A DNA stretch of 63,108 nt, filler included, from Basidiobolus ranarum (Eukaryota): assembly GCA_040143965.1 (NCBI GenBank). It is 8 parts of 8 records of this genome, joined end to end, with 100 filler letters (N's around TTAATTAATTAA, not from the genome) between each part and the next. Parts side by side here need not be neighbours in the genome. Positions count along the whole stretch, not along the records: positions 23,751 to 31,551 come from JASJQH010007936.1; 7 more parts are not named here. One strand, given 5' to 3'. How positions within the stretch are numbered: position 1 is the stretch's first letter; every line of letters starts with the position of its first letter. Made by a program: the position numbers and the translations under genes. Shown here in pieces: positions 7,821 through 55,323 of this stretch. Under the pieces are notes generated by a model. It ran no database searches and was not told the origin of the DNA. It saw nothing but the letters and a program-made list of their open reading frames with translations.

Positions 7821-7920
7821 NNNNNNNNNNNNNNNNNNNNNNNNNNNNNNNNNNNNNNNNNNNNTTAATTAATTAANNNNNNNNNNNNNNNNNNNNNNNN
7901 NNNNNNNNNNNNNNNNNNNN
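7821..7920. other. Artificial contig linker (N44-TTAATTAATTAA-N44)
   Basis: 100-bp N pad containing an all-frame stop sequence. Confidence 0.98.
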
Positions 7921-10137: not shown

Positions 10138-12216
10138 ATGGGTAAAAGAAATCGCGCCGCCCTGCTTGCCACTAATCTCCCACAGCTTCAAAATCTTATT
10201 AAGCGGGATCCCGAATCGTACAAGGATGAATTTATTCAACAATGGCGCCATTTTGAGTCCTCCCTCTCCATTTTCAAGTTGAAACCAGATGAAGAAGCCA
10301 AAGAATTCGGAGAGTTAATCACTTTCCTTGCTCAAGTTTCTCCCTGCTATCCAAAAGAGAGTAGCGAGTTTCCTAAAGAAATCATGGGTCTTTTATCTGA
10401 ACACTATCAGATTCTCGAACCCAATCTTCGTAAGAACATGGTATCCGCTCTAATTCTCCTTCGTAATAGAGATATTATCACTAGTACTAGTCTCTTGTCC
10501 CTCTTCTTCACTCTTTTCCGTTGCCACGATAAGAACCTTCGTGAAATGCTATATACACATATCGTGAACGACATCCGTAACGCCAACAATAAGCATAAGA
10601 ACAACAAACTCAACAAAACTTTGCAAAACTTCATGTTCACCATGATAACCTCAGCTGAAGGGGCTGCTGATAACAACAGTGAGAATGCCATTGCTGCAAA
10701 GAAGAGTTTGGACGTCTGTGTTGAACTCTACAAGAAGAATGTCTGGCATGACGCGAAGACCGTTAATGTTGTTGTTAGCGCTTGTTTCTCTCCTGTTACC
10801 AGAATTATGGTTACTGCTCTCCAATTTTTCTTGGGTGCTGACGAGGAGGAGGATTCTTCAGATGAAGAGGATGACGATGTTCCAGATGTCCGTCGCATGC
10901 AACAAGTCAAAACCTTTACCAAAAAGACCCGTGCTAAAACCCGTGCTTTAGATAAAGCTATTGCAACTGTTAAAAGAAAAGAGAGAAATAGAACCAAAGC
11001 CGAAAATTTCAATTTCTCAGCCATTCACTTGGTGAACGATCCACAAGGTTTCGTTGAGAAGCTCTTTGCTCGTCTTAACAAATCTTCTGAAAGATTTGAA
11101 GTTCGTTTGATGATCATGAAGTTGATTGCTCGTCTCATCGGTATACACAAGCTTATTTTCTTGAGTTTCTATACTTATCTTATCCGTTATCTCCAACCTC
11201 ATCAACGCGATGTCACCCAAGTCTTGGCATTGACTGCCCAGGCTTCTCATGAAATAGTCCCTCCTGATACCCTTGAACCAGTCCTTTTGGCGATTGCCAA
11301 CAATTTCGTCACTGAAAATATGTCAAGTGAAGTAATGTCAGCTGGTTTGAATGGCATTCGCGAAATCTGTTCTCGTTGTCCACTAGCCATGACTGAGACA
11401 CTTTTGCAGGATTTGACCGAGTACAAGGGCCACAGAGATAAGGGTATTATGATGGCCTCTAGATCCTTGATCGGTCTCTTCCGTGAAATCAATCCTGAAT
11501 TACTCAAGAAGAAGGACAGAGGTAAGGGAGTTACTATGTCTCTGAAAGATTTCAAGCCTGCTCAGTATGGTGAAGCGCGTGCTGCTGAGACCATCGACGG
11601 ACTCGACCTCTTGTCTAAAGAAAAGACCACCGAGGAAGATGATGCCGCTGCCTGGGAAGGATGGGAAGTTGAGAGTGACGATTCTGAGGGTGAAGGCGAT
11701 TGGGTTGATGTTCAGCAATCTGACGATGAGACTGCTATTCAGGTAGAAATGGACTCCGACGAGGAGAAACCAAAGGAGGAAGAGGAAAATCAAGAGCCCG
11801 TAGAGAACATTGCTCTTACCAAGATTCTTACTCCTCAAGACTTTGCTAGAATCAACGAGCTTAAGACCATGAATAAAGCGGAACAAATCATTGGCAAGAG
11901 AAAGCAAGATACTAATGAGGCTTCTGAAGAAATTGTGGATGAATCTACTATTTTAGGCCCTAGAAAGAAGAAGAAGCAGGACTACGAAGAAAGATTGGAA
12001 TCCATCAAGGCTGGTCGTGAAGGAAGATCTAAGTTTGGTTCAAGTAAGGGTAATCCTGATAGAGGCAGTACCACTAACAGAGAAAAGGCTAGAAACAAGG
12101 CCTTTATGATGGTGGTCCACAAACGCTCTGTCAAACAAAAGTCCAAGTTGTCATTGCGTGAAAAACAGAAGCAGCTTAGAACACACATCAATCACCAGAA
12201 GAAGAAAGGCCATTAA
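10138..12216 (+). CDS. SDA1: SDA1 ribosome biogenesis protein (692 aa, intronless)
   Basis: NLPQLQNLIKRDPESYKDEF, FSAIHLVNDPQGFVEKLF, ILTPQDF and STTNREKARNK motifs. Confidence 0.96.
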   Translation: MGKRNRAALLATNLPQLQNLIKRDPESYKDEFIQQWRHFESSLSIFKLKPDEEAKEFGELITFLAQVSPCYPKESSEFPKEIMGLLSEHYQILEPNLRKNMVSALILLRNRDIITSTSLLSLFFTLFRCHDKNLREMLYTHIVNDIRNANNKHKNNKLNKTLQNFMFTMITSAEGAADNNSENAIAAKKSLDVCVELYKKNVWHDAKTVNVVVSACFSPVTRIMVTALQFFLGADEEEDSSDEEDDDVPDVRRMQQVKTFTKKTRAKTRALDKAIATVKRKERNRTKAENFNFSAIHLVNDPQGFVEKLFARLNKSSERFEVRLMIMKLIARLIGIHKLIFLSFYTYLIRYLQPHQRDVTQVLALTAQASHEIVPPDTLEPVLLAIANNFVTENMSSEVMSAGLNGIREICSRCPLAMTETLLQDLTEYKGHRDKGIMMASRSLIGLFREINPELLKKKDRGKGVTMSLKDFKPAQYGEARAAETIDGLDLLSKEKTTEEDDAAAWEGWEVESDDSEGEGDWVDVQQSDDETAIQVEMDSDEEKPKEEEENQEPVENIALTKILTPQDFARINELKTMNKAEQIIGKRKQDTNEASEEIVDESTILGPRKKKKQDYEERLESIKAGREGRSKFGSSKGNPDRGSTTNREKARNKAFMMVVHKRSVKQKSKLSLREKQKQLRTHINHQKKKGH

Positions 12217-15737: not shown

Positions 15738-15837
15738 NNNNNNNNNNNNNNNNNNNNNNNNNNNNNNNNNNNNNNNNNNNNTTAATTAATTAANNNNNNN
15801 NNNNNNNNNNNNNNNNNNNNNNNNNNNNNNNNNNNNN
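15738..15837. other. Artificial contig linker
   Basis: N44-TTAATTAATTAA-N44. Confidence 0.98.
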
Positions 15838-18413: not shown

Positions 18414-19838
18414 ATGGAGACGGTTCAAATTGTTCTCATCATCATAGCAGCCATATGGAATATTCACATTATCGTTTCTATGGCTTTGTTATGGCAGAGA
18501 AGACATTTAGATACCGTTAGATATCGCTCTCCTGGGCTAACATGTGTTAGTGCTGTTTCTTCAATGGTGCTGATCGCGATTTATGTTGCCTTGCTTCCCA
18601 TGCAGAAATTCCCTTGTTTCCTAAATCTTTGGATCACGTCTTTGGTCCAACCACTTCTTTACCTGACTATCCTAGCGCGTGCATTAAGGTTGTTGTTTTT
18701 CTACCAATTCAGTGAGGCAAGACTAGCTGTTGCCCTAAATAAACCGGAAAAATCTACATACCGACCCAAATCCATCATTCAAATATTCACTGCAAGTAGA
18801 AGGAAAAGTGATGGGTCGGCCTACGAGCTTCACGGCTTAACCGACAGCCCAACTCCGCCTTTACCTTCTGACTCTATCGTCCAAGATATACCTCCGCCAA
18901 TATGGGGATACAGGGGGAATGATTTGAGTCAAAATTGGTATTATCGTCGACGATACATGTTGTCTGGACAGTTCATAGCCACTGTGATCGCCATGATATT
19001 GATGTTTCATCTTTGCGTGGTATTTATCGTTCAACTTTTGAGCAAGCGATTTGCATTATATCCTGCCATTCATACAGAAGATTGCATGCGAGGCTGGGAG
19101 TATTATCCACATGACGTATTCGCATGCATTTATATTCTGATATTTTTCCCATTTCTGATTTATAAATTATGGTCCGTTAAAGATGCATATGGGATTAGGG
19201 TGGAGTTGATAGCCACATCGTTAATCTCGTGCATTGGATTTTTCATCTTTCTCATGACGCTCATATTCGGGAAAGATACCAGCTTTAGTAAGGACATTCC
19301 GCATAGCTTATGGTGGGGTTTACCCCTAATGGTGGTCAGTTTTTTCACTGTCACCTATCCCCTGATCAAATGCTTGCCATACTCCTTCTCATGTTCCCGA
19401 CGTCTTTCATCCGAAACCGAGTATACGATGGAGGTTTTCGAGTCCCTTCTCAATAATCCCATACAATTTGAAAGTTTCAAGCTGTTTACAGTTTCAGATT
19501 TCACCATTGAAAACACTCTGTTCTATGAGCGTTGTCGTAACATCGCCTTGAGTGCACAGGAGGCGAATTGTAACAACAGTATTGATGTGGCCACTGAACT
19601 TCAGGAGATCTACAACACATTCATCAAAACTACCGCGGAATTCCAGGTGAATTTGGAATCGGAGACTCGGAAATCATTACTAGACAAAGTAGAGAAGGAA
19701 TTGTTCACTTTAGATATGTACGAGTCGGCAGTGGAGGAGATTAAATTCCTAATGTTTCGTAATACCTATCTTCGTTATCTTACCCAAGCGAAAACCAGAC
19801 GGGTAGACTGGGAGGGTAAGAGTGAGGGATTTATATAG
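18414..19838 (+). CDS. 7TM-RGS protein (GprK/AtRGS1-like architecture), intronless
   Basis: About seven hydrophobic segments with YRSPGL and VKDAYGIRVEL motifs, then an RGS box FESFKLFTVSDFTIENTLFY...IYNTFIKTTAEFQVNL...EIKFLMFRNTYLRYL. ATG at 18414 preferred over the TTG start at 18270. Confidence 0.88.
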   Translation: METVQIVLIIIAAIWNIHIIVSMALLWQRRHLDTVRYRSPGLTCVSAVSSMVLIAIYVALLPMQKFPCFLNLWITSLVQPLLYLTILARALRLLFFYQFSEARLAVALNKPEKSTYRPKSIIQIFTASRRKSDGSAYELHGLTDSPTPPLPSDSIVQDIPPPIWGYRGNDLSQNWYYRRRYMLSGQFIATVIAMILMFHLCVVFIVQLLSKRFALYPAIHTEDCMRGWEYYPHDVFACIYILIFFPFLIYKLWSVKDAYGIRVELIATSLISCIGFFIFLMTLIFGKDTSFSKDIPHSLWWGLPLMVVSFFTVTYPLIKCLPYSFSCSRRLSSETEYTMEVFESLLNNPIQFESFKLFTVSDFTIENTLFYERCRNIALSAQEANCNNSIDVATELQEIYNTFIKTTAEFQVNLESETRKSLLDKVEKELFTLDMYESAVEEIKFLMFRNTYLRYLTQAKTRRVDWEGKSEGFI

Positions 19839-21344: not shown

Positions 21345-21854
21345 ATGCATATCCTTTTTGTTGCTCTATGCCTTCTGTCAACAGTGAGATTCAGCCTTGG
21401 CTGAGGATGTTACGGGCCTCAGTAGTGTCTACTCTATACCAACGAAATGTGCAATAGAGGGGTGCCGGTAAATAGTCCCGATTGTCAATGCGACTGTTGT
21501 CCCGCGTGTAATTCGTGTCCTCAACTTAATGCTGGATGCCATTCTACGAAGCTCAATTATACAGATTTATATTTTGAACAACCGCTGGGAACCTTCAGTC
21601 GGAATTCCCCAATTCCAGTAATATATCTCAAATCCAAACGGAACATTGACGGATTCTATTTTGGTGATCCATGTGTGAATCCAGCTCTACCCGCGGGGTT
21701 ATCTATTTCCAATCTAACTCAATCGGCTCCATTACCGGTGTATGCCCTCTCCGGAACTCCAGTGGAGTCGTCCGCCCCAACCCAGTACACACTCATCCTA
21801 CGTGGGTCTGTAAATACGTTAGCTGCTCTGAAATTTCAACTGGCAGTGAATTAA
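21345..21854 (+). pseudogene. Secreted Cys-rich protein with putative Ig (He_PIG-like) domain; two in-frame stops after the signal peptide
   Basis: ATG 21345 gives signal-like MHILFVALCLLSTVRFSLG, then TGA 21402 and TAG 21423, in frame with ORF 21447-21854 (CQCDCCPACNSC...LPAGLSI...LSGTP). Confidence 0.5.
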
Positions 21855-23650: not shown

Positions 23651-23750
23651 NNNNNNNNNNNNNNNNNNNNNNNNNNNNNNNNNNNNNNNNNNNNTTAATT
23701 AATTAANNNNNNNNNNNNNNNNNNNNNNNNNNNNNNNNNNNNNNNNNNNN
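23651..23750. other. Artificial contig linker
   Basis: N44-TTAATTAATTAA-N44. Confidence 0.98.
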
Positions 23751-24382
23751 TACGTCCTGAACCCGGAGTACCTCCGAATCACGGAACTGGCGCCACCACT
23801 TCCTGAACTCTTAGAAGTTGAGGTACTGACTGATATCCTAGAATGTGCTAGACTGCAACCACTCACCATCATTTCAAACTAGATCATTTCTGCGCAGCAG
23901 TTACCCAAACCGAAGCTCGCTAGTAAAGGCGAGATTGTCGACCCTTTTTGCGAACTGGAGGTGATCACCTCTACCGTAGTACGTCGTCGTACTCGTACGA
24001 TCGCAAACAACGGTTTCAATCCAATCTGGAAAGAAAAGTTTATCTTTGAGATCCATCGTCCGGAAATCACTTTTCTAAGATTTGCTATCTACGATCAAGG
24101 GATAGGCTCTGATGAGATTCTGGCTAGCTACTGCATCATGTTAGATAATTTACAACAAGGTAAGTATTTCGAGAATACTCATTGATCTGTATTCCCGCTT
24201 CTAAGGACAATACGGTTTGTGTTTTAGGCTATCGCCACCTGCCTCTCAAAGACTACAAAGGAGAGCGAATCCATTTTAGTCACGTCTTTATACGCTCCAA
24301 TCGACGACCCTTATCCAAACGAACTAGATCTTCCTCCACAATAGAAGATATCAAATTACCACCATCCATTCAATCCGTTTGA
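23751..24382 (+). CDS. PLC1: Phosphoinositide phospholipase C, 3' end (end of Y box plus C2 domain), 5'-partial
   Basis: Exons YVLNPEYLR / IISAQQLPKP...DPFCELEV...RTIANNGFNPIW...FLRFAIYD...LQQG / YRHLPL match the PLC C2 domain. Confidence 0.9.
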
Positions 24383-25175
24383 TTATACGTTGCTTTAACG
24401 TAGTTGCATTCCATCCCTCGTCACCCAACCCCCTTTCACATGTATTTATATATATCAAGCCTTCATAATGTTATTTTCTAAACCTCCCAAAGTGCATGGA
24501 GGTTCTTGTGTATTTCATTCTATTGCCTGTAAACCACACGACATTTGTTAATTGTCATTTTCGCCTTTCTTTCCGTTTGTTCTTCACTGTAAAGCCTGTA
24601 ATGTTAGTATCTGTACACGCTGAGTCAATTTCGCAAGCTAAACATTCTTGGTCCTAAGCCAAGGTTGAAAATTCCCATTTAGCAAGTTGTATTCGAATCG
24701 CGAATTTAATGGTACTTTGTTTACAACACCATACGTATTTGAACCACCTCGCACCAAGACCTCGGCAGGATCATCCAAGAGAACCACCATTGGTAGGATA
24801 GAATGATTGGTAAGAAGATGGGTTATCATTCCACAGGACAAATGAATAACTAGATATCCATGAAGAGTAAAGTTACTTCATTAAAACCAACCGTTTGAAA
24901 TGCATCATTTACATCTGCATATTGAATTTGACCTGGCAGGATAGTGGTAATTGTGAATGCAAGAACAGTCTATTACATGTTCATCCATCTGTTACAACGT
25001 TTCGTAGTTGCGTAGCTTCGTACAAATCCCAGAGATGAGGTGGATTAATTTGGTTAGATATGATGAAATATATTCATAACAAATTTACTAAACTATACTG
25101 ATATGTGGCGGAGTTTTGGGGGAACACTATAAAGTCCCTGGGAATTATTCCCGTAAATTTTTATCTAACAAGAGT

Positions 25176-25349
25176 ATGAAATATCCCTCGGTTATATATT
25201 TGTTCCTCATTCTTAGTACCTCTATTACCAGGTCCAGGGCCTATCCAGAGGGCAATCCCGTTGAGAATACTGAGAATAAGCCATGCTCAGGTACAATCAA
25301 CCTGAACCTTGAATTCCTTGGACTTCCCATCAAAGCATGTCTTTTATAA
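25176..25349 (+). CDS. Small secreted peptide (57 aa) with C-terminal C-x17-C-LL module
   Basis: Signal-like MKYPSVIYLFLILSTSITRSRA. TATAAA ~45 bp upstream. The C-terminus is homologous to that of the next gene. Confidence 0.7.
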   Translation: MKYPSVIYLFLILSTSITRSRAYPEGNPVENTENKPCSGTINLNLEFLGLPIKACLL

Positions 25350-25634
25350 GATTAAAATGACGAAATCTCACCTACATCTGAGACGTAACATTTTGGTTTC
25401 ACACTAACCTAAGATAAACAAATCCATCTCGGTGGGTAGTGGAATAAAATCCATTCACAAACAACATGTTGAAATGGTGGTGCATTTGCATCCATGTAGA
25501 ATATTATCAATAAAGAAAACCAACGGAAGATTTCACTTATCAACCGGTACATTAATTCCTCTCTCTATATATATGGTACTCGATATTCCTAAAAATCATA
25601 CACTCTTTTCTTTATCGATCAATCCATATTGCAT

Positions 25635-27080
25635 ATGAAATTCACTACTACCACCACCATATCCATTATATTGGCATCTGGTATGGTACAATCAGCAGTG
25701 ATTGATTCTTCCCCCGAGCCTAGCAGAATGTCCATATCCATGGACAAGAGAGCACTGAGACCGATTCGTAGATCTCCATTAGAGAATGATTTCACTAAAT
25801 TCATGGGATTCTCTAGAAAAACCAAAGATATTTCAAGGAATGTTAGTAATTCTATGAGTAGAACCAAAGAAGCAATATCTACCAGAAAGCGTAGAAGACC
25901 TGATCCTACATACAGAAATGGTGGTCATAGAGGTGGTCATGATCGTAAATATCCAGGTATAATAGGTTCCGTTGGTAGAAGACCCCCTTCTGATATGCTC
26001 AATCTTCCTGGATCCAGAAACGATAGAGGTTCTGATAATTCTGGTAATAAGTCAACTGGTGATTTAGGAAAGAAATCCTCTAATGGAACTGGTGATGGAA
26101 GTCGTGGTAATAATAACCTCGGTAGTGGTCAACGTGGTGGCTCTAGTTCCAGTGGAAATGGTAACTCTGGAGGAAACAAGGATAATCGTGAACCAAAAGG
26201 CAGGACTGCCGCAAGAGATAATACCAATGGTAGTAAAAACTCCAAAAATTCCGACTCTAGAGATAATAATGCCAACAACAACCCAATGAATAATACTCCC
26301 AGTAATGGTCGTTCCAAAGACAATAATGGCTCGAAGGGTCGTGGTAATTCCGGAAAAGACTCCAAAGATAGTAAGAATTCGAAGGAGGGTGGTAATAGCT
26401 CTGGGAATGATCCTGACAGTCCCAAAAACACCAACCCTAAAAATAGCGGTAGCAACTCCCGGAATGGTTCGGACAGTCCAAAAGACAATGCTGGTTCTAA
26501 AGATACCAACCCCAAAGATGGTGGTAATAACTCTGGGAATGGTTCTGCTAATCCTAAAGATAATGGTGGTTCCAAAGATACTAATCCTAAAGATAGTGGT
26601 AGCAACCCAGGAAAAGGTTCCGATAGTCCTAAAGACAATGGTGGCTCCAAAGATGCCAATCCTAAAGATAGCGGTAGCAACTCTGGAAACGACAGTCCTA
26701 AAGATGCTAACCCTAAAGATAACAGTGGCAACTCAGGTAATGGTAATCCTAAAGATGGCGGTAATAACTCAGGCAATGGTGATGCTAAAGACGGCGGTAG
26801 TAACTCCGGCAATGGTGATCCTAAAGATGGCAGTAGTAACTCTGGAAATGGTGGCAACAATGCTGGAGACGGTGGAAATCCCCCAAAGGATAATAGCGGT
26901 GGAAACAGCTCAGACAACGGTGCCGAGAGTCCCAAAGATAGCAGTACTACTCCCTCCCCAACAACTACACCCACACCCACACCTACTCCTAGCAATGCGC
27001 CACCAGCAAATAACTGCAACCGTCTTATCAGCTTAAACGTCAATCTTCTTGGAATCCCTATTCGCGCTTGTTTACTGTGA
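25635..27080 (+). CDS. Secreted low-complexity repeat protein (481 aa; PKD/GSN repeats, PT linker, C-x17-C-LL tail)
   Basis: Long ORF with signal-like MKFTTTTTISIILASGMVQSA, dibasic sites, about a dozen PKD-containing G/S/N repeats and TPTPTPTP. TATATA upstream at ~25566. Confidence 0.85.
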   Translation: MKFTTTTTISIILASGMVQSAVIDSSPEPSRMSISMDKRALRPIRRSPLENDFTKFMGFSRKTKDISRNVSNSMSRTKEAISTRKRRRPDPTYRNGGHRGGHDRKYPGIIGSVGRRPPSDMLNLPGSRNDRGSDNSGNKSTGDLGKKSSNGTGDGSRGNNNLGSGQRGGSSSSGNGNSGGNKDNREPKGRTAARDNTNGSKNSKNSDSRDNNANNNPMNNTPSNGRSKDNNGSKGRGNSGKDSKDSKNSKEGGNSSGNDPDSPKNTNPKNSGSNSRNGSDSPKDNAGSKDTNPKDGGNNSGNGSANPKDNGGSKDTNPKDSGSNPGKGSDSPKDNGGSKDANPKDSGSNSGNDSPKDANPKDNSGNSGNGNPKDGGNNSGNGDAKDGGSNSGNGDPKDGSSNSGNGGNNAGDGGNPPKDNSGGNSSDNGAESPKDSSTTPSPTTTPTPTPTPSNAPPANNCNRLISLNVNLLGIPIRACLL

Positions 27081-27972
27081 TCATATCTAAAGTGTGATAC
27101 CTTCAACGCTAGGAATATAGAAATATCAATTGAATTGAAATATTAAGTAGATAGCTAGTTTACTTTTGTTTACCCATTCGGAAATAAATATACTCTAACA
27201 CAACAACACTAGGACGATTGCCATTGATCTGCAATTGTTACACTAGGGAATTTGTTTATTATGAGGCTTTGCTCAAGAGTGGGGGGTTAGGGTTGGCTGG
27301 ATTAAGTGCAGATTAAGTGGTGGTATTGCGTGGTGGTATATTGCGTTGAAATCAGTGACACCATAGAATGAGGCTTGTTGTATAACCAGGATTGGCTAGG
27401 ATTAGGGTTATATTTCAGATAATCTTCATCAAGATCACTAATTATATCGGTAATATTTAGGGTAGCTACAGGAACCACATATAGAGTGGGATGATTATAA
27501 GATTGCTTTCCCCACAGAGGATCTAAAATTGGGGCTGCCATTCCAAGCCTCACTTCTGTGCCACAATAATCCCCAAATATATCCAAATCTCTTTTAATGA
27601 CACATTCAGCCTCAATATAATGCTACTCGTAATTTTATTAGTAGGTTGAAATCAGAGTAACAATCAATAAATATATATAAAGAAATCGCGAGGCTGAAAG
27701 CCACAGGTTGATGAGATAACCCCATTTTCTTGTGCATCAGCTGTGGGGAATTGTAAAATTTAACAAGCGAAGGAGGACAAGGGTACAGGATTCAATGGTT
27801 TTGCCTTGACTGGTTAACCAGATACATGCCAAATTAGGAAAGTTCATGAAAAGTCCAGTGGGGGTGAAGTCAATACTTACTCGGAGCAGAAAAAAAAGAT
27901 GCCTTCTCATATCACATATTTTCTTCATCACCAACTCTGCTGCTTGACTTGTCATCATTCCCCTATTCTAAA

Positions 27973-29229
27973 ATGTTCCGTTCTGCACTTACCTCTGTTG
28001 CTAGAAGCACTGTTCAAGCTCAAAACCGAAAGCTCGCTTTGGGTGCTACCTGCAATGCTGGTAGACTTTTTGTCCAAGCTCGTTTCAATTCATCAGCTAC
28101 CAAGCAGGTACTTGGAATGTTATTAAAGAATCTGAGCCAACGATAGATCATTAACACTTTTAATTCAAAGATTACCGTTCGTGATGCCCTTAACTCAGCT
28201 TTGGACGAAGAATTATCTAGAGATGATAAGGTTTACCTTATGGGTGAAGAAGTTGCTCAATACAATGGTGCCTACAAGGTTTGTTTTCTATTATATATAG
28301 CGCTCTCTTTATTTATTCATTTCTTAATCATTGCTTTTGCTTGCGAATAGGTTTCCAAGGGTCTTCTCGATAAATTCGGTGCCAAGCGTGTGATTGATAC
28401 CCCTATTACTGAAGCCGGATTTGCCGGTATCGCCGTTGGTAGTGCCTTGAGTGGACTCAGACCTGTGGTCGAATTCATGACTTTCAACTTTGCTATGCAA
28501 GCTATTGATCATATCGTGAACTCAGCTGCCAAGACTCATTACATGTCTGGTGGCCAAGTCCAATGCCCTATTGTTTTCCGCGGTCCCAACGGTGCTGCTG
28601 CTGGTGTAGGTGCTCAACATTCCCAATGCTATGCTGCCTGGTATGGTTCCATCCCTGGTCTCAAGGTTATTTCTCCTTGGAACGCTGAGGATTGCAGAGG
28701 TCTCTTAAAGGCCGCCATCCGTGACCCCAATCCTGTCGTTTTCCTTGAAAATGAAATCATGTACGGTGCTTCCTTCGATATCTCCGAAGAGGCCCTTGGC
28801 AAAGATTTCGTCATTGAAATCGGTAAGGCTAAGATTGAACGTGAAGGTACTGATGTTACCTTGGTAGCTCACTCCAAGCCAGTTGGTGATGCTTTGGCTG
28901 CCGCTGAGCTCCTTGCCAAGGAAGGTATCAACGCTGAGGTTATCAACTTGCGTTCTATTCGTCCTTTGGATATTGACACCATTATCAAGTCCGTCAAGAA
29001 GACCAACCGTCTTATCACTGTTGAAGGTGGCTGGCCTCAATTCGGCGTTGGTTCTGAAATCTGCGCCCAAATTATGGAGTCTGAAGCTTTCGACTACCTT
29101 GATGCTCCTGTTGAGCGTATCACTGGTGCCGATGTCCCCATGCCTTATGCTAAGCCTTTAGAAGACCTTGCTCTTCCTACCACCGACATTATTGCACAAG
29201 TCGCCAAACGTGTCTTGAACAGAAAGTAG
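27973..29229 (+). CDS. PDB1: Pyruvate dehydrogenase E1 beta subunit; exons ~27973-28107, 28171-28278, 28351-29229
   Basis: Mitochondrial presequence, [56 protein letters not shown]. Confidence 0.97.
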
Positions 29230-29467
29230 AGATCCAATAGTGTCGATGCTGCATTTGCCTTCACATCCAATATCTAATCATCATTTAAACCACACAAATC
29301 AAATTCAGTTTTCAAACTCACCTTGCTTTCATGATCAACTTCGTTATATCCTTCCTTGAAGTCAAGTTGACTTTTAGACTCATGTATCATTTTCTTATTT
29401 TCAACCGCTACACATTTGAGTTGCAAATAAACTAATTATCATCCAAAGCTCATCCGTTTTTTATTCA

Positions 29468-29884
29468 TTAACTTTCATATTTCTCCGCAGCCGGCTCATT
29501 AAAGTCGGTGCGATCAAAGCCATATCCTTTGCCAACGCCGATCCCACCAGAACCACTACCTCCAATATCACCATCACCCTTGAAATTGAAGCCACGCTCC
29601 AAGGTACTGCTTCCCTTAGCTCCAAATCTTCCTTTGATCCCACCTCCGAGTCCTGGGATGAACTTACTTTTATACCCACCATTACCGGATCCACCAATAG
29701 ATCCTTCTAGACTACCAGTACCATTTTCCTTAACATATTGGTATGCCTTCCGAAACAATCCACCAATAAACGATCCATCCACAGTTTCCATATCCCCAGC
29801 GTTCTCTGTGATCCCTTGTGGGAATGCGAGAGCAACTTGGCTAATTGCGACAGCAGCAAGAACGATGGCGGCAATGGATCTCAT
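29468..29884 (-). CDS. Secreted glycine-rich protein, copy A (138 aa)
   Basis: Signal MRSIAAIVLAAVAISQVALA, acidic ENAG segment, Gly-rich body. Similar to the divergently transcribed neighbour. Confidence 0.75.
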   Translation of the reverse strand: MRSIAAIVLAAVAISQVALAFPQGITENAGDMETVDGSFIGGLFRKAYQYVKENGTGSLEGSIGGSGNGGYKSKFIPGLGGGIKGRFGAKGSSTLERGFNFKGDGDIGGSGSGGIGVGKGYGFDRTDFNEPAAEKYES

Positions 29885-30238
29885 ACTATGAATGGATTTG
29901 GTGAAAGCAGGTCTAAGGAAACGGATCAATGATGCTTACGTAGTGAGGATAGAGAGAATATCTTGCGGATAAACTACTTATATATAATCTACCTATACTT
30001 AAAACTTCAAGGGGTTTCAAGAATACATGAAATATGCAAAGATTAAATCCTTTGGGAATGTATGACAAAGGGGAGTGTTTCATTTCGAAACAGTTTCAAT
30101 GCACATCAAATCCTCAAACAGTAGGAAATATTCCATCATCGGTGTCATTACGATACCTTCTAAGCTCTTTAAAAGAACCTCGTTTGACTCACTAGAATAC
30201 TCACCCTTCCTTTCTCTACTCACCATCCCACTATCATC

Positions 30239-30853
30239 ATGAAATTCATCCTCGCCACCGGTCTCTTTGCCTTGTCTGCTAGCCAAATCGCTTTCGCTGA
30301 AAACGCTGGCTTGAATGAAGGTGCTGAGGACGTTAATGCTCGTGAAGAGCTTAGCCTTGGTGGTGTTGCTGGATATCTTGGTAATAAGATAGCTCATGGA
30401 GTTGGTAGTGGAATTGGACACGTCTTTGATGGCTCTGGCATCGGTGGTACCTTCGGTGGTCGTGGTCACGGTGGATTCCGCGGTGACTTCGACAACGGTT
30501 TCGGAGCTGGAGGCTCTGGCAACTTCCGTGGCAGAGGAGCCGGTAACTTCAGAGATATCCTAGGTGGTGAGATCAAGGGTGGAGGTAAGGGGTCCGGAGG
30601 AGTAGGATTCGGTAACAAGTACCGAGGTGGATTAAAGGTCGCCAGTCCTGAACTCGGTTACAAGATTGATGACTATAATGAGGGTCTTGAGTGGGCTGAT
30701 GATTATGCTGGCGGTCGTGGTGGTCGTGGAGGTCGTGGTGGCCGTGGAGGTCGTGGACCTATTGTTGGACAAGACGAGAGTTCTTGGACTCCTGAGCATC
30801 TCCGTGAACCAGTTGCAGCTTATGACGATGCCGCTCCTGTAGCCGAATACTAA
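30239..30853 (+). CDS. Secreted glycine/RGG-rich protein, copy B (204 aa)
   Basis: Signal MKFILATGLFALSASQIAFA, ENAG acidic segment, GGRGGRGGRGGRG tract. Codon usage resembles PDB1. Confidence 0.82.
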   Translation: MKFILATGLFALSASQIAFAENAGLNEGAEDVNAREELSLGGVAGYLGNKIAHGVGSGIGHVFDGSGIGGTFGGRGHGGFRGDFDNGFGAGGSGNFRGRGAGNFRDILGGEIKGGGKGSGGVGFGNKYRGGLKVASPELGYKIDDYNEGLEWADDYAGGRGGRGGRGGRGGRGPIVGQDESSWTPEHLREPVAAYDDAAPVAEY

Positions 30854-31415
30854 AAACATCAAACCTGTTTGATAGGCAATTGTTTATTGTTAAACGAATC
30901 ATACTCTCTTGCCAATAAAGCTCATTTCAAAACACATAGTTTGAATTCACAATTACTAGTTAAATATTAACAGGTCTTACTGTATGTAACTATCGATAAT
31001 GATATGGGAAACAGTTTAAAGTAAGCAAAGCATAAAAAATAATACGCTCTGCTGCTTCTAAGCAGGTAATACTACATACTATGAACCTTGAATTGTGTAT
31101 TGATAATCGAAAAACATGTCAAATAATCAGGTTTAAGTTTGGCCAGATAATTTCTTCTCTTTAGATTAATATGTAAGGGTGGATATTTATCACTAAACGC
31201 AAGATCTATACTTGTCGACTCAGACATTCTTGATTATCAATTTTCATTTCAAAATAATTCTATCACAACAGGTTTTTCTATTCATGCATAGAATTATATA
31301 CCAACTTAAAGAGGATTTAAACATAGATAATCAGACTTATTATTTTGAGTATATTCAGAAGATCAATGAAGAGTTTATTTAAGATGGATTGTATCATTCT
31401 TGATAAAACTTCTAC

Positions 31416-31551
31416 CTATTCTTCGGCTTCAGGGGCAGAAGCATATGCAACAGCGGGCTCATAGCCACCACGACCGCCACGTCCACCGCGACCTCCACGG
31501 CCACCACGACCGCCAGCATAATCATCAGCCCACTCAAGACCCTCATTATAG
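31416..31551 (-). CDS. Glycine/RGG-rich protein, copy C, 3' end only (cut by contig end)
   Basis: Minus strand reads YNEGLEWADDYAGGRGGRGGRGGRGGRGGYEPAVAYASAPEAEE*, paralogous to copy B. Absent from the ORF track. Confidence 0.8.
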
Positions 31552-31651
31552 NNNNNNNNNNNNNNNNNNNNNNNNNNNNNNNNNNNNNNNNNNNNTTAAT
31601 TAATTAANNNNNNNNNNNNNNNNNNNNNNNNNNNNNNNNNNNNNNNNNNNN
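31552..31651. other. Artificial contig linker
   Basis: N44-TTAATTAATTAA-N44. Confidence 0.98.
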
Positions 31652-39446: not shown

Positions 39447-39546
39447 NNNNNNNNNNNNNNNNNNNNNNNNNNNNNNNNNNNNNNNNNNNNTTAATTAATT
39501 AANNNNNNNNNNNNNNNNNNNNNNNNNNNNNNNNNNNNNNNNNNNN
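39447..39546. other. Artificial contig linker
   Basis: N44-TTAATTAATTAA-N44. Confidence 0.98.
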
Positions 39547-47336: not shown

Positions 47337-47436
47337 NNNNNNNNNNNNNNNNNNNNNNNNNNNNNNNNNNNNNNNNNNNNTTAATTAATTAANNNNNNNN
47401 NNNNNNNNNNNNNNNNNNNNNNNNNNNNNNNNNNNN
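47337..47436. other. Artificial contig linker
   Basis: N44-TTAATTAATTAA-N44. Confidence 0.98.
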
Positions 47437-55223: not shown

Positions 55224-55323
55224 NNNNNNNNNNNNNNNNNNNNNNNNNNNNNNNNNNNNNNNNNNNNTTAATTAATTAANNNNNNNNNNNNNNNNNNNNN
55301 NNNNNNNNNNNNNNNNNNNNNNN
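55224..55323. other. Artificial contig linker
   Basis: N44-TTAATTAATTAA-N44. Confidence 0.98.

Follow-up and report, generated by a model that had tools for sequence, protein, structure and literature searches.

We analyzed a stretch of 63,108 nucleotides (nt), filler included, from Basidiobolus ranarum (NCBI GenBank assembly GCA_040143965.1), which joins eight parts of eight records end to end and is referred to below as the window. Two adjacent genes predicted on its plus strand at 25176..27080, within the part taken from JASJQH010007936.1 (positions 23,751 to 31,551), encode a short form of 57 amino acids (aa) and a long form of 481 aa, which share a C-terminal tail of 21 residues with two cysteines, called the module in this study. 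The parts of the two genes are as follows; P0002, to which some lines refer, is a relative from another Basidiobolus species that is described further below.

25176..25349, plus strand: predicted short-form gene, 57 aa; ATG-to-stop open reading frame (ORF) with a signal-like start, a 14-residue polar spacer, the 21-residue module, and the stop
25176..25241, plus strand: signal-peptide-like region of the short form, residues 1-22 (heuristic); candidate cleavage between SRA and YPE
25284..25346, plus strand: C-terminal module of the short form, residues 37-57; C-x17-C-L-L, with the only two Cys of the protein
25635..27080, plus strand: predicted long-form gene, 481 aa, without introns; ATG-to-stop ORF, stop codon at 27078-27080
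25635..25697, plus strand: signal-peptide-like region of the long form, about residues 1-21 (heuristic); a V-Q-S-A-V-I stretch is kept in P0002
25698..26024, plus strand: basic N-terminal region of the long form, about residues 22-130; five [KR]R sites at residues 38-116, with S-R-T-K-E-A and G-H-D-R conserved
26025..26942, plus strand: hydrophilic low-complexity region of the long form, rich in Ser/Asn/Gly/Asp/Lys/Pro; degenerate in-frame repeats
26422-26686 (75-nt units), 26649-26757 (51-nt units), and 26712-26853 (36-nt units), plus strand: repeat units of the long form, 60-89% identical
26943..27014, plus strand: Thr/Pro/Ser-rich stalk and short linker of the long form, residues 437-460, directly before the module; the stalk is also found in P0002
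27015..27077, plus strand: C-terminal module of the long form, residues 461-481; the only two Cys of the protein, 18 of 21 residues identical to the P0002 module

The positions and sizes of the two ORFs were exactly those given in a first-pass annotation of the window, and its statement that both genes lack introns agrees with the continuity of the ORFs and with the colinearity of the long form with P0002. The ATG of the short form is the first after an in-frame stop codon (25089-25091), with the stop-to-stop frame beginning at 25092, and a spacer of 285 nt separates the two ORFs, both of which lie on the plus strand.

The long form contains 16% Ser, 16% Asn, and 15% Gly, together with 13 N-x-S/T sequons, and hydrophobic residues account for just 6% of the sequence once the signal peptide and the module are set aside. 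The periods of its repeats (75, 51, and 36 nt) are all multiples of three. Codon-usage scores, trained on ten conserved ORFs of the window, gave +94.3 bits for the long form in its frame and negative values in the other five frames. The repeat region is also open in three further frames, with ORFs of 222, 337, and 248 codons (26064-27142 on the minus strand and 26290-27036 on the plus strand among them); these are a by-product of stop-poor repeats and could mislead gene callers. Opposite-strand ORFs across the repeats were considered as genes and rejected, with codon scores far below that of the annotated frame.

Homology of the two tails and selection on the module

Over their final 21 residues, the short and long forms can be aligned gap-free, with 12 of 21 positions identical and 17 of 21 similar; Cys occupies tail positions 1 and 19, followed by L-L and the stop. 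The first-pass annotation had claimed this identity and Cys spacing for two proteins that are otherwise unrelated, and BLASTP between the two forms bore it out, matching the tail at E 8e-7 and finding no similarity elsewhere in the two proteins. The 63 nt flanking the module on each side are 27% and 29% identical, which is the random level. As a control for chance, all stop-to-stop ORFs in the window with 40 aa or more were compared pairwise over their final 21 residues (621 tails, 192,510 pairs); this pair scored 12/21, and the runner-up was a single pair at 9/21.

No third copy of the module was found in the window by a six-frame motif scan or by hmmsearch with a profile of the four family members presented below (next match E 0.35), and a loose regular expression for the motif gave six window matches, four of them spanning stop codons. 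A 14-nt direct repeat, 13/14 identical, connects 25999-26012 in the N-terminal region of the long form (L-N-L-P-G) with 27040-27053 in its module (N-L-L-G-I); this is the sole DNA match of the module to anything nearby and is probably due to chance.

The 63-nt modules of the two forms differ at 11, 4, and 13 of the 21 first, second, and third codon positions, corresponding to identities of 48%, 81%, and 38%, respectively. With the method of Nei and Gojobori, the proportion of synonymous differences (pS) between the two modules was 0.85, which is beyond saturation, vs a proportion of nonsynonymous differences (pN) of 0.31. The same codon is used at 6 of the 12 conserved residues, where 3.9 would be expected with an independent draw from the codon usage of the window (P 0.15). 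When drift was simulated with all sites diverging like third positions, a mean of 2.9 of 21 residues matched, and 0 of 5000 runs reached 10. These comparisons show that the two tails are homologous and that their predicted amino-acid sequence is under purifying selection; the duplication is read from them as old, with the residues, both Cys, and the position of the stop apparently held by selection.

In an alternative explanation, the long gene alone is functional, and the 57-aa ORF, left over from a partial duplication, is not expressed and is open by chance. The ORF is indeed small, with a modest codon-usage score that is best in its own frame (+7.0 bits, other frames -5.6 to -52.3), its protein is absent from the protein collection described below, and the promoter- and poly(A)-type hexamers nearby occur at chance frequency. 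However, synonymous and third positions have been randomized, yet the two copies still agree at 12 of 21 residues, in both Cys, and in where the stop falls, a level of agreement that the simulations never attained even at 10 residues. The ORF also keeps a signal-like start at its first ATG, and the annotated B. ranarum short form P0003, introduced in the next section, has the same M-K-Y start and tail, with Lys at module position 17 as in the short form of the window. Since synonymous sites are saturated while the protein sequence of the tail has been kept, the short ORF is very unlikely to be a decayed duplicate, and the remnant explanation as a whole is considered highly improbable. Of the grounds on which the first-pass annotation would have given up its proposal, neither a dead partial duplication nor a known family was borne out within the reach of these analyses, the former in view of pS and pN and of the short form recurring as a type in P0003. 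A 57-codon ORF is thus demonstrably under selection from a single paralogue comparison.

The candidate transcription signals around the two genes are as follows.

25128..25133, plus strand: TATAAA, possible core promoter, 48 nt upstream of the short-form ATG; the hexamer occurs at 0.65 per kilobase (kb) in the window, not significant
25443 and 25509 (25443..25514), plus strand: two AATAAA, possible poly(A) signals, 94 and 160 nt past the short-form stop; 0.89/kb in the window, weak
25566..25573, plus strand: TATATATA, possible core promoter, about 62-69 nt upstream of the long-form ATG, within the 285-nt spacer; weak
27183..27188, plus strand: AATAAA, possible poly(A) signal, 103 nt past the long-form stop; weak

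Hexamers of the promoter and poly(A) types occur at 0.65-0.97 per kb across the window, which is the background level, and those near the short- and long-form genes are compatible with two separate transcription units.

Family members in Basidiobolus and surroundings of the gene pair

A profile of the two tails was searched against 1,835,955,588 representative proteins at E<=0.001, and two true relatives were identified, both with the match at the C-terminus. P0002 (233 aa, E 3.3e-8, aligned at residues 209-233 of 233) is the hypothetical protein K493DRAFT_305424 of Basidiobolus meristosporus CBS 931.73, and P0003 (92 aa, E 9.8e-6, aligned at residues 67-92 of 92) is the hypothetical protein K7432_002490 of B. 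ranarum. The third match within this threshold, a bacterial repeat protein, was rejected as spurious, as it hits only the non-module flank of the profile. K493DRAFT_305424 and K7432_002490 are true members that differ in length from the window proteins (233 vs 481 aa and 92 vs 57 aa, respectively), and two Basidiobolus proteins known only as hypothetical are now placed in a defined family with short and long forms.

The long form is colinear with P0002 from Met1 to the end, through a signal-like start, a basic N-terminal region, a chain rich in Gly/Asn/Ser/Asp/Lys/Pro, a Thr/Pro stalk, and the module. The N-terminal regions of the two are 33% identical (52/157, E 7e-13) and their modules 18/21, with large insertions and deletions in the repeats. 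The short form and P0003 agree at 14 of 21 module residues and otherwise have in common the M-K-Y start and scattered single identities.

The consensus of the four members is C-[SND]-[GR]-x-I-[NS]-L-[ND]-[LV]-x-[LF]-L-G-[LI]-P-[IV]-[KR]-A-C-L-L-COOH, in which ten columns are invariant (C1, I5, L7, L12, G13, P15, A18, C19, L20, and L21). Each of the four proteins contains exactly two Cys, both in the module and 18 residues apart, and the module stands at the extreme C-terminus in every case. At module position 17, the short forms both have Lys and the long forms both have Arg, and the long-form modules (window and P0002) are mutual closest relatives; this suggests that the split into short and long forms predates the divergence of these genomes, which four sequences cannot prove. 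The N-termini, for which the first-pass annotation had claimed a signal-like character in the two window proteins, are signal-like in all four members, with Lys2, a 10-residue hydrophobic core (hydropathy 2.2-3.1; residues 6-15 at 2.46 in the short form), and cleavage sites fitting the -3/-1 rule, according to a heuristic of our own and not SignalP.

The module is the sole segment conserved across both forms and almost the only one kept in the short forms; it is the best conserved segment of these proteins and, by this criterion of sequence conservation, their likely functional unit. The predicted architecture comprises two forms: a short form consisting of signal peptide, variable spacer, and module, and a long form consisting of signal peptide, basic N-terminal region, disordered chain, Thr/Pro stalk, and module. 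Both forms are conserved in Basidiobolus as far as can be judged from these four sequences, and no known family was matched.

In particular, the searches in Pfam retrieved no family at E<=1 for any of the four proteins, those in NCBIfam gave two matches at chance level only (E 0.06 and 0.1), and a sequence profile search of the PDB gave no match at E<=10. The family had gone unrecognized in the first-pass annotation, and these results are in line with that. Rfam yielded nothing at E<=0.1 on 24500-27500. A word-index homology search returned no candidate for the short form; for the long form, none of the 7998 candidates scored reached E<=0.01, which is weak evidence, as the search was probably crowded by low-complexity words. 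When the four-sequence profile was used on the longer proteins of a 5.8-billion-cluster collection, no further members beyond P0002 and P0003 were found among 8000 candidates scored. A profile scan of metagenomes gave 232 pattern matches, none of which was confirmed, and a scan of metagenome DNA with the back-translated last ten residues and stop gave no matches. In the ESM Atlas, the homologues had a best feature score of 0.77 (P0003) or no usable match (P0002), and the structure matches had a template modeling (TM) score below 0.5; these results were taken as uninformative.

In the literature, a full-text search for the locus tags of the homologues and one UniProt accession found no papers, and the search listings for Basidiobolus secretome, hydrophobin, RNA-seq, and small secreted proteins contained nothing on a C-x17-C-L-L family. 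Strings of the module motif gave solely unrelated text matches among the matches listed, and the JGI protein number of P0002 is absent from the examined supplements of PMC9391592. The sequence family is new, with four members from one genus, none of them characterized, although it resembles a general kind already known, in which secreted proteins are anchored or linked together by a short C-terminal tail containing cysteines.

By exact look-up, the short and long proteins of the window were absent from a 15-billion-protein collection, in which the SDA1-like product of window positions 10138-12213 was present (sources NCBI and UniRef), and no search with the module returned any protein from the window itself. 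As both proteins are absent and another product of the window is present, it appears that annotators skipped or mis-modeled both genes. Two genes, one of them of 481 codons, are thus apparently lacking in the deposited annotation.

About 2.4 kb downstream of the long gene, divergent ORFs at 29468-29935 (minus strand) and 30188-30853 (plus strand) encode low-complexity proteins that are Gly-rich and signal-like, and one of them ends in RGG repeats; they belong to no Pfam family and are mutually unrelated (BLASTP E 38). This locus may form a small cluster of genes for secreted proteins of low complexity. The flanking genes in the window are ordinary eukaryotic ones: a C2 domain gene, a gene of the pyruvate-dehydrogenase E1-beta-like type whose presequence lies on an exon of its own, and a gene of the seven-transmembrane (7TM)-RGS type. 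The last of these, an ORF at 18414-19835 (plus strand), matches 7tm_3 weakly (E 6.9e-6, which does not reach the Pfam cut-off), contains an RGS domain (E 8.7e-11), and would be of the receptor-RGS fusion type. Additionally, an ORF at 21426-21854 (plus strand) has a dense Cys cluster near its start (C-x-C-x-C-C-x2-C-x2-C) and matches no Pfam family at E<=0.01. Paired 44-base runs of N occur every ~7.9 kb, with 616 N in total (7821-7920, 15738-15837, 23651-23750, 31552-31651, 39447-39546, 47337-47436, and 55224-55323); their spacing is too regular for assembly gaps, and they look like a result of window preparation.

Possible fold, processing, and role of the module

The first-pass annotation had described an alternating hydrophobic pattern with an L-G turn and had proposed a disulfide-closed beta-hairpin. 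The alternation was found in part: in the first half of the module, hydropathy alternates in the beta manner in the short forms (moment 2.0 at 170 degrees vs 0.85-0.88 at 100 degrees), whereas the moments at 170 and 100 degrees are nearly equal in the long-form modules. With a four-sequence alignment, AlphaFold2 produced a 40-residue model with two short strands at module residues 4-7 and 16-19, at low confidence (mean predicted local distance difference test score, pLDDT, 60.8; predicted TM score, pTM, 0.22). The proposed L-G turn does not lie midway between the two Cys. A disulfide-closed beta-hairpin is thus weakly supported by the modeling.

The tail might instead be a signal for attachment of glycosylphosphatidylinositol (GPI), or another cleaved C-terminal sorting signal, that is removed by the transamidase of the endoplasmic reticulum, so that the long form would be an ordinary GPI-anchored wall or membrane protein and the short form a very small GPI-anchored peptide. 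A GPI signal has small residues at the omega and omega+2 positions, ~17-32 residues before the C-terminal end, and closes with a continuous hydrophobic stretch of some 10-20 uncharged residues. These characteristics were assessed by a heuristic of our own and not by a dedicated predictor. The family members resemble fungal Ser/Thr-rich wall proteins with GPI signals in their signal-like N-terminus, in the Ser/Thr/Pro stalk, and in the hydrophobic extreme C-terminus that follows it, which is terminal in all four, and omega-like triplets of small residues stand at a suitable distance in two of the four (the short form with C-S-G or S-G-T and the long form with S-N-A). Predictions assign a GPI anchor to about 10% of zygomycete secretomes (PMC9391592), which was counted in favor of this explanation. 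However, the omega-like triplet is missing in P0002 and P0003, and none of the four has an uninterrupted hydrophobic tail; Asn or Asp and a basic residue break it up, and the longest run without charged or amide residues is 6-8. Lys or Arg at -5 is conserved in all members, two or three strongly polar residues fall within the last 15, and the best 15-residue hydropathy is just 1.43-1.73. Unlike a GPI signal, the tail is conserved in sequence: although synonymous sites are saturated, it is the best conserved segment, with its polar Asn/Asp, its Gly and Pro, and the two Cys among the residues kept, and the short forms would be left with nothing conserved if it were cut off and degraded. A cleaved GPI-type signal is therefore rated as unlikely. 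The stalk adjoining the tail suggests that the C-terminal end is the anchored end.

Another possibility is that the module is released as a bioactive peptide of ~21 residues, cyclized by a disulfide (a signal, pheromone, antimicrobial, or toxin-like peptide), with the upstream parts serving as pro-regions. The module is the sole strongly conserved segment and carries the only two Cys, as is typical of C-terminal mature peptides, the 57-aa size and the order of signal, spacer, and peptide suit a prepropeptide, and K-K directly precedes the first Cys in P0003. Nevertheless, no processing site is conserved before the module, the preceding residues being K-P, N-N, Q-N, and K-K, and the [KR]R sites of the long form are confined to residues 38-116, far from the tail. 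A glycosylatable chain of 440 residues with a Thr/Pro stalk, conserved as a type in P0002, would also be odd as a pro-region. The module is hydrophobic and near neutral (net charge 0 to +2), in contrast to the cationic antimicrobial peptides of the hairpin type. A released peptide is accordingly regarded as rather unlikely.

The comparison with known systems gave partial likenesses. According to PMC3079736, chaplins comprise short forms with a single domain and long forms anchored in the wall; both contain a hydrophobic domain with two conserved Cys and are thought to heteropolymerize into a surface layer. Like the chaplins of Streptomyces (short ChpD-H, long ChpA-C), the Basidiobolus family combines secreted module-only peptides with longer proteins that have the same hydrophobic two-Cys module. 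Unlike it, chaplins are bacterial, and their domain has ~40 residues, is N-terminal in the long forms, and is accompanied by a separate C-terminal sortase anchor; the Basidiobolus module makes up the last 21 residues, and the long form is otherwise hydrophilic. Membership among the chaplins was rejected, with no chaplin match in Pfam (E<=1) or NCBIfam and no LPXTG-type signal, and the logic of short and long forms alone is shared. By this analogy, the module could be a 21-residue, disulfide-closed amphipathic tag that self-assembles at interfaces or on the wall in a chaplin-like two-component surface system, in which free short peptides would build the layer and long glycosylated brush proteins would be tethered into it by the same tag; this is a doubtful proposal at present.

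The family is also like hydrophobins and the repellents of Ustilago, which the first-pass annotation had named as functional analogues, in consisting of small secreted fungal proteins or peptides with amphipathic character. Hydrophobins have eight Cys in a fixed pattern, and assignment to them (Pfam Hydrophobin or Hydrophobin_2) was rejected on the basis of two Cys per protein and no Pfam family at E<=1. Ustilago repellents are released from Kex2-processed repeats, unlike the repeats of the long form, which carry no K-R sites. Kex2-processed repeat proteins (KEP) contain tandem peptide repeats split by K-R or R-R sites behind a signal peptide, as described in PMC7329392. The long form was not assigned to them, as its five [KR]R sites, at residues 38-116, lie outside the repeats (about residues 250-430) and none falls within the units.

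Two further assignments were considered and rejected. Lipopeptides of the CaaX type (fungal a-factor-like pheromones) have Cys at -4 and a cytosolic precursor without a signal peptide; all four members have Cys at -3 (C-L-L-stop) and a signal-like N-terminus, so that CaaX prenylation was not retained. For leucine-rich repeats (LRR), there was no Pfam LRR at E<=1, and Asn is out of the LxxLxLxxN register by eye; the match of P0002 to the LRR protein internalin K in NCBIfam (E 0.062, 11.7 bits vs a cut-off of 1100) is at chance level. Short C-terminal Cys elements that drive covalent oligomerization are known from the secretory tailpiece of IgM and IgA, which acts with the J chain, and from the C-terminal cystine knot of gel-forming mucins. 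As in mucins, a Cys element would be placed on a long, glycosylated, disordered chain, and as in IgM, a small separate protein would join the assembly. Unlike the Basidiobolus proteins, these are animal proteins, with no sequence similarity and with a different number and position of Cys.

With a probability of roughly 0.4, we favor the reading that the module is a lineage-specific C-terminal association or anchoring element that is retained on the mature protein. From the sequences, we infer secretion, disulfide formation, the fold, retention of the tail, and a binding or anchoring role. The module would remain on the mature protein as a small amphipathic element stabilized by its two Cys and would fix the hydrophilic long chain by its C-terminus to a partner at the cell surface that is either hydrophobic or a protein. 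The order of parts in the long form, with a conserved N-terminal region followed by a long hydrated chain and by a Thr/Pro stalk adjoining the tail, suggests that it is held by its C-terminal end; the chain itself would be hydrophilic, disordered, and open to glycosylation. The module-only short form may pair or co-assemble with the long form, possibly through disulfides, in a manner reminiscent of short and long chaplins or of a C-terminal tailpiece.

Several points weigh against a retained association or anchoring element. The family consists of four sequences only, from at most three genomes of one genus, so that the conservation statistics rest on a tiny sample. The terminal position of the module in all four members is equally expected of a cleaved sorting signal. 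The AlphaFold2 model of the module is of low confidence, as indicated by the values given above, and the Atlas models of the homologues are unstructured, with a mean pLDDT of 0.32 for P0003 and 0.44 for P0002, the latter being consistent with a disordered long chain. In addition, the codon-usage support of the short form is modest, at the 83rd percentile of 175 small ORFs, and both genes appear to be missing from, or mis-modeled in, the deposited annotation.

Basidiobolus is a fungal lineage outside the Dikarya, and hydrophobins are, to our knowledge, a family of the Dikarya. Should the tail serve for assembly or anchoring, it would show how an early-diverging fungus can decorate its surface without the families known from the Dikarya, and its 21 residues would make a very small, transferable tag for tethering proteins. 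If the doubtful chaplin-like system proved true, the fungus would have evolved a minimal means of surface assembly independently, as a eukaryotic counterpart of the short and long chaplins, and its tag would be among the smallest protein assembly or anchoring tags known.

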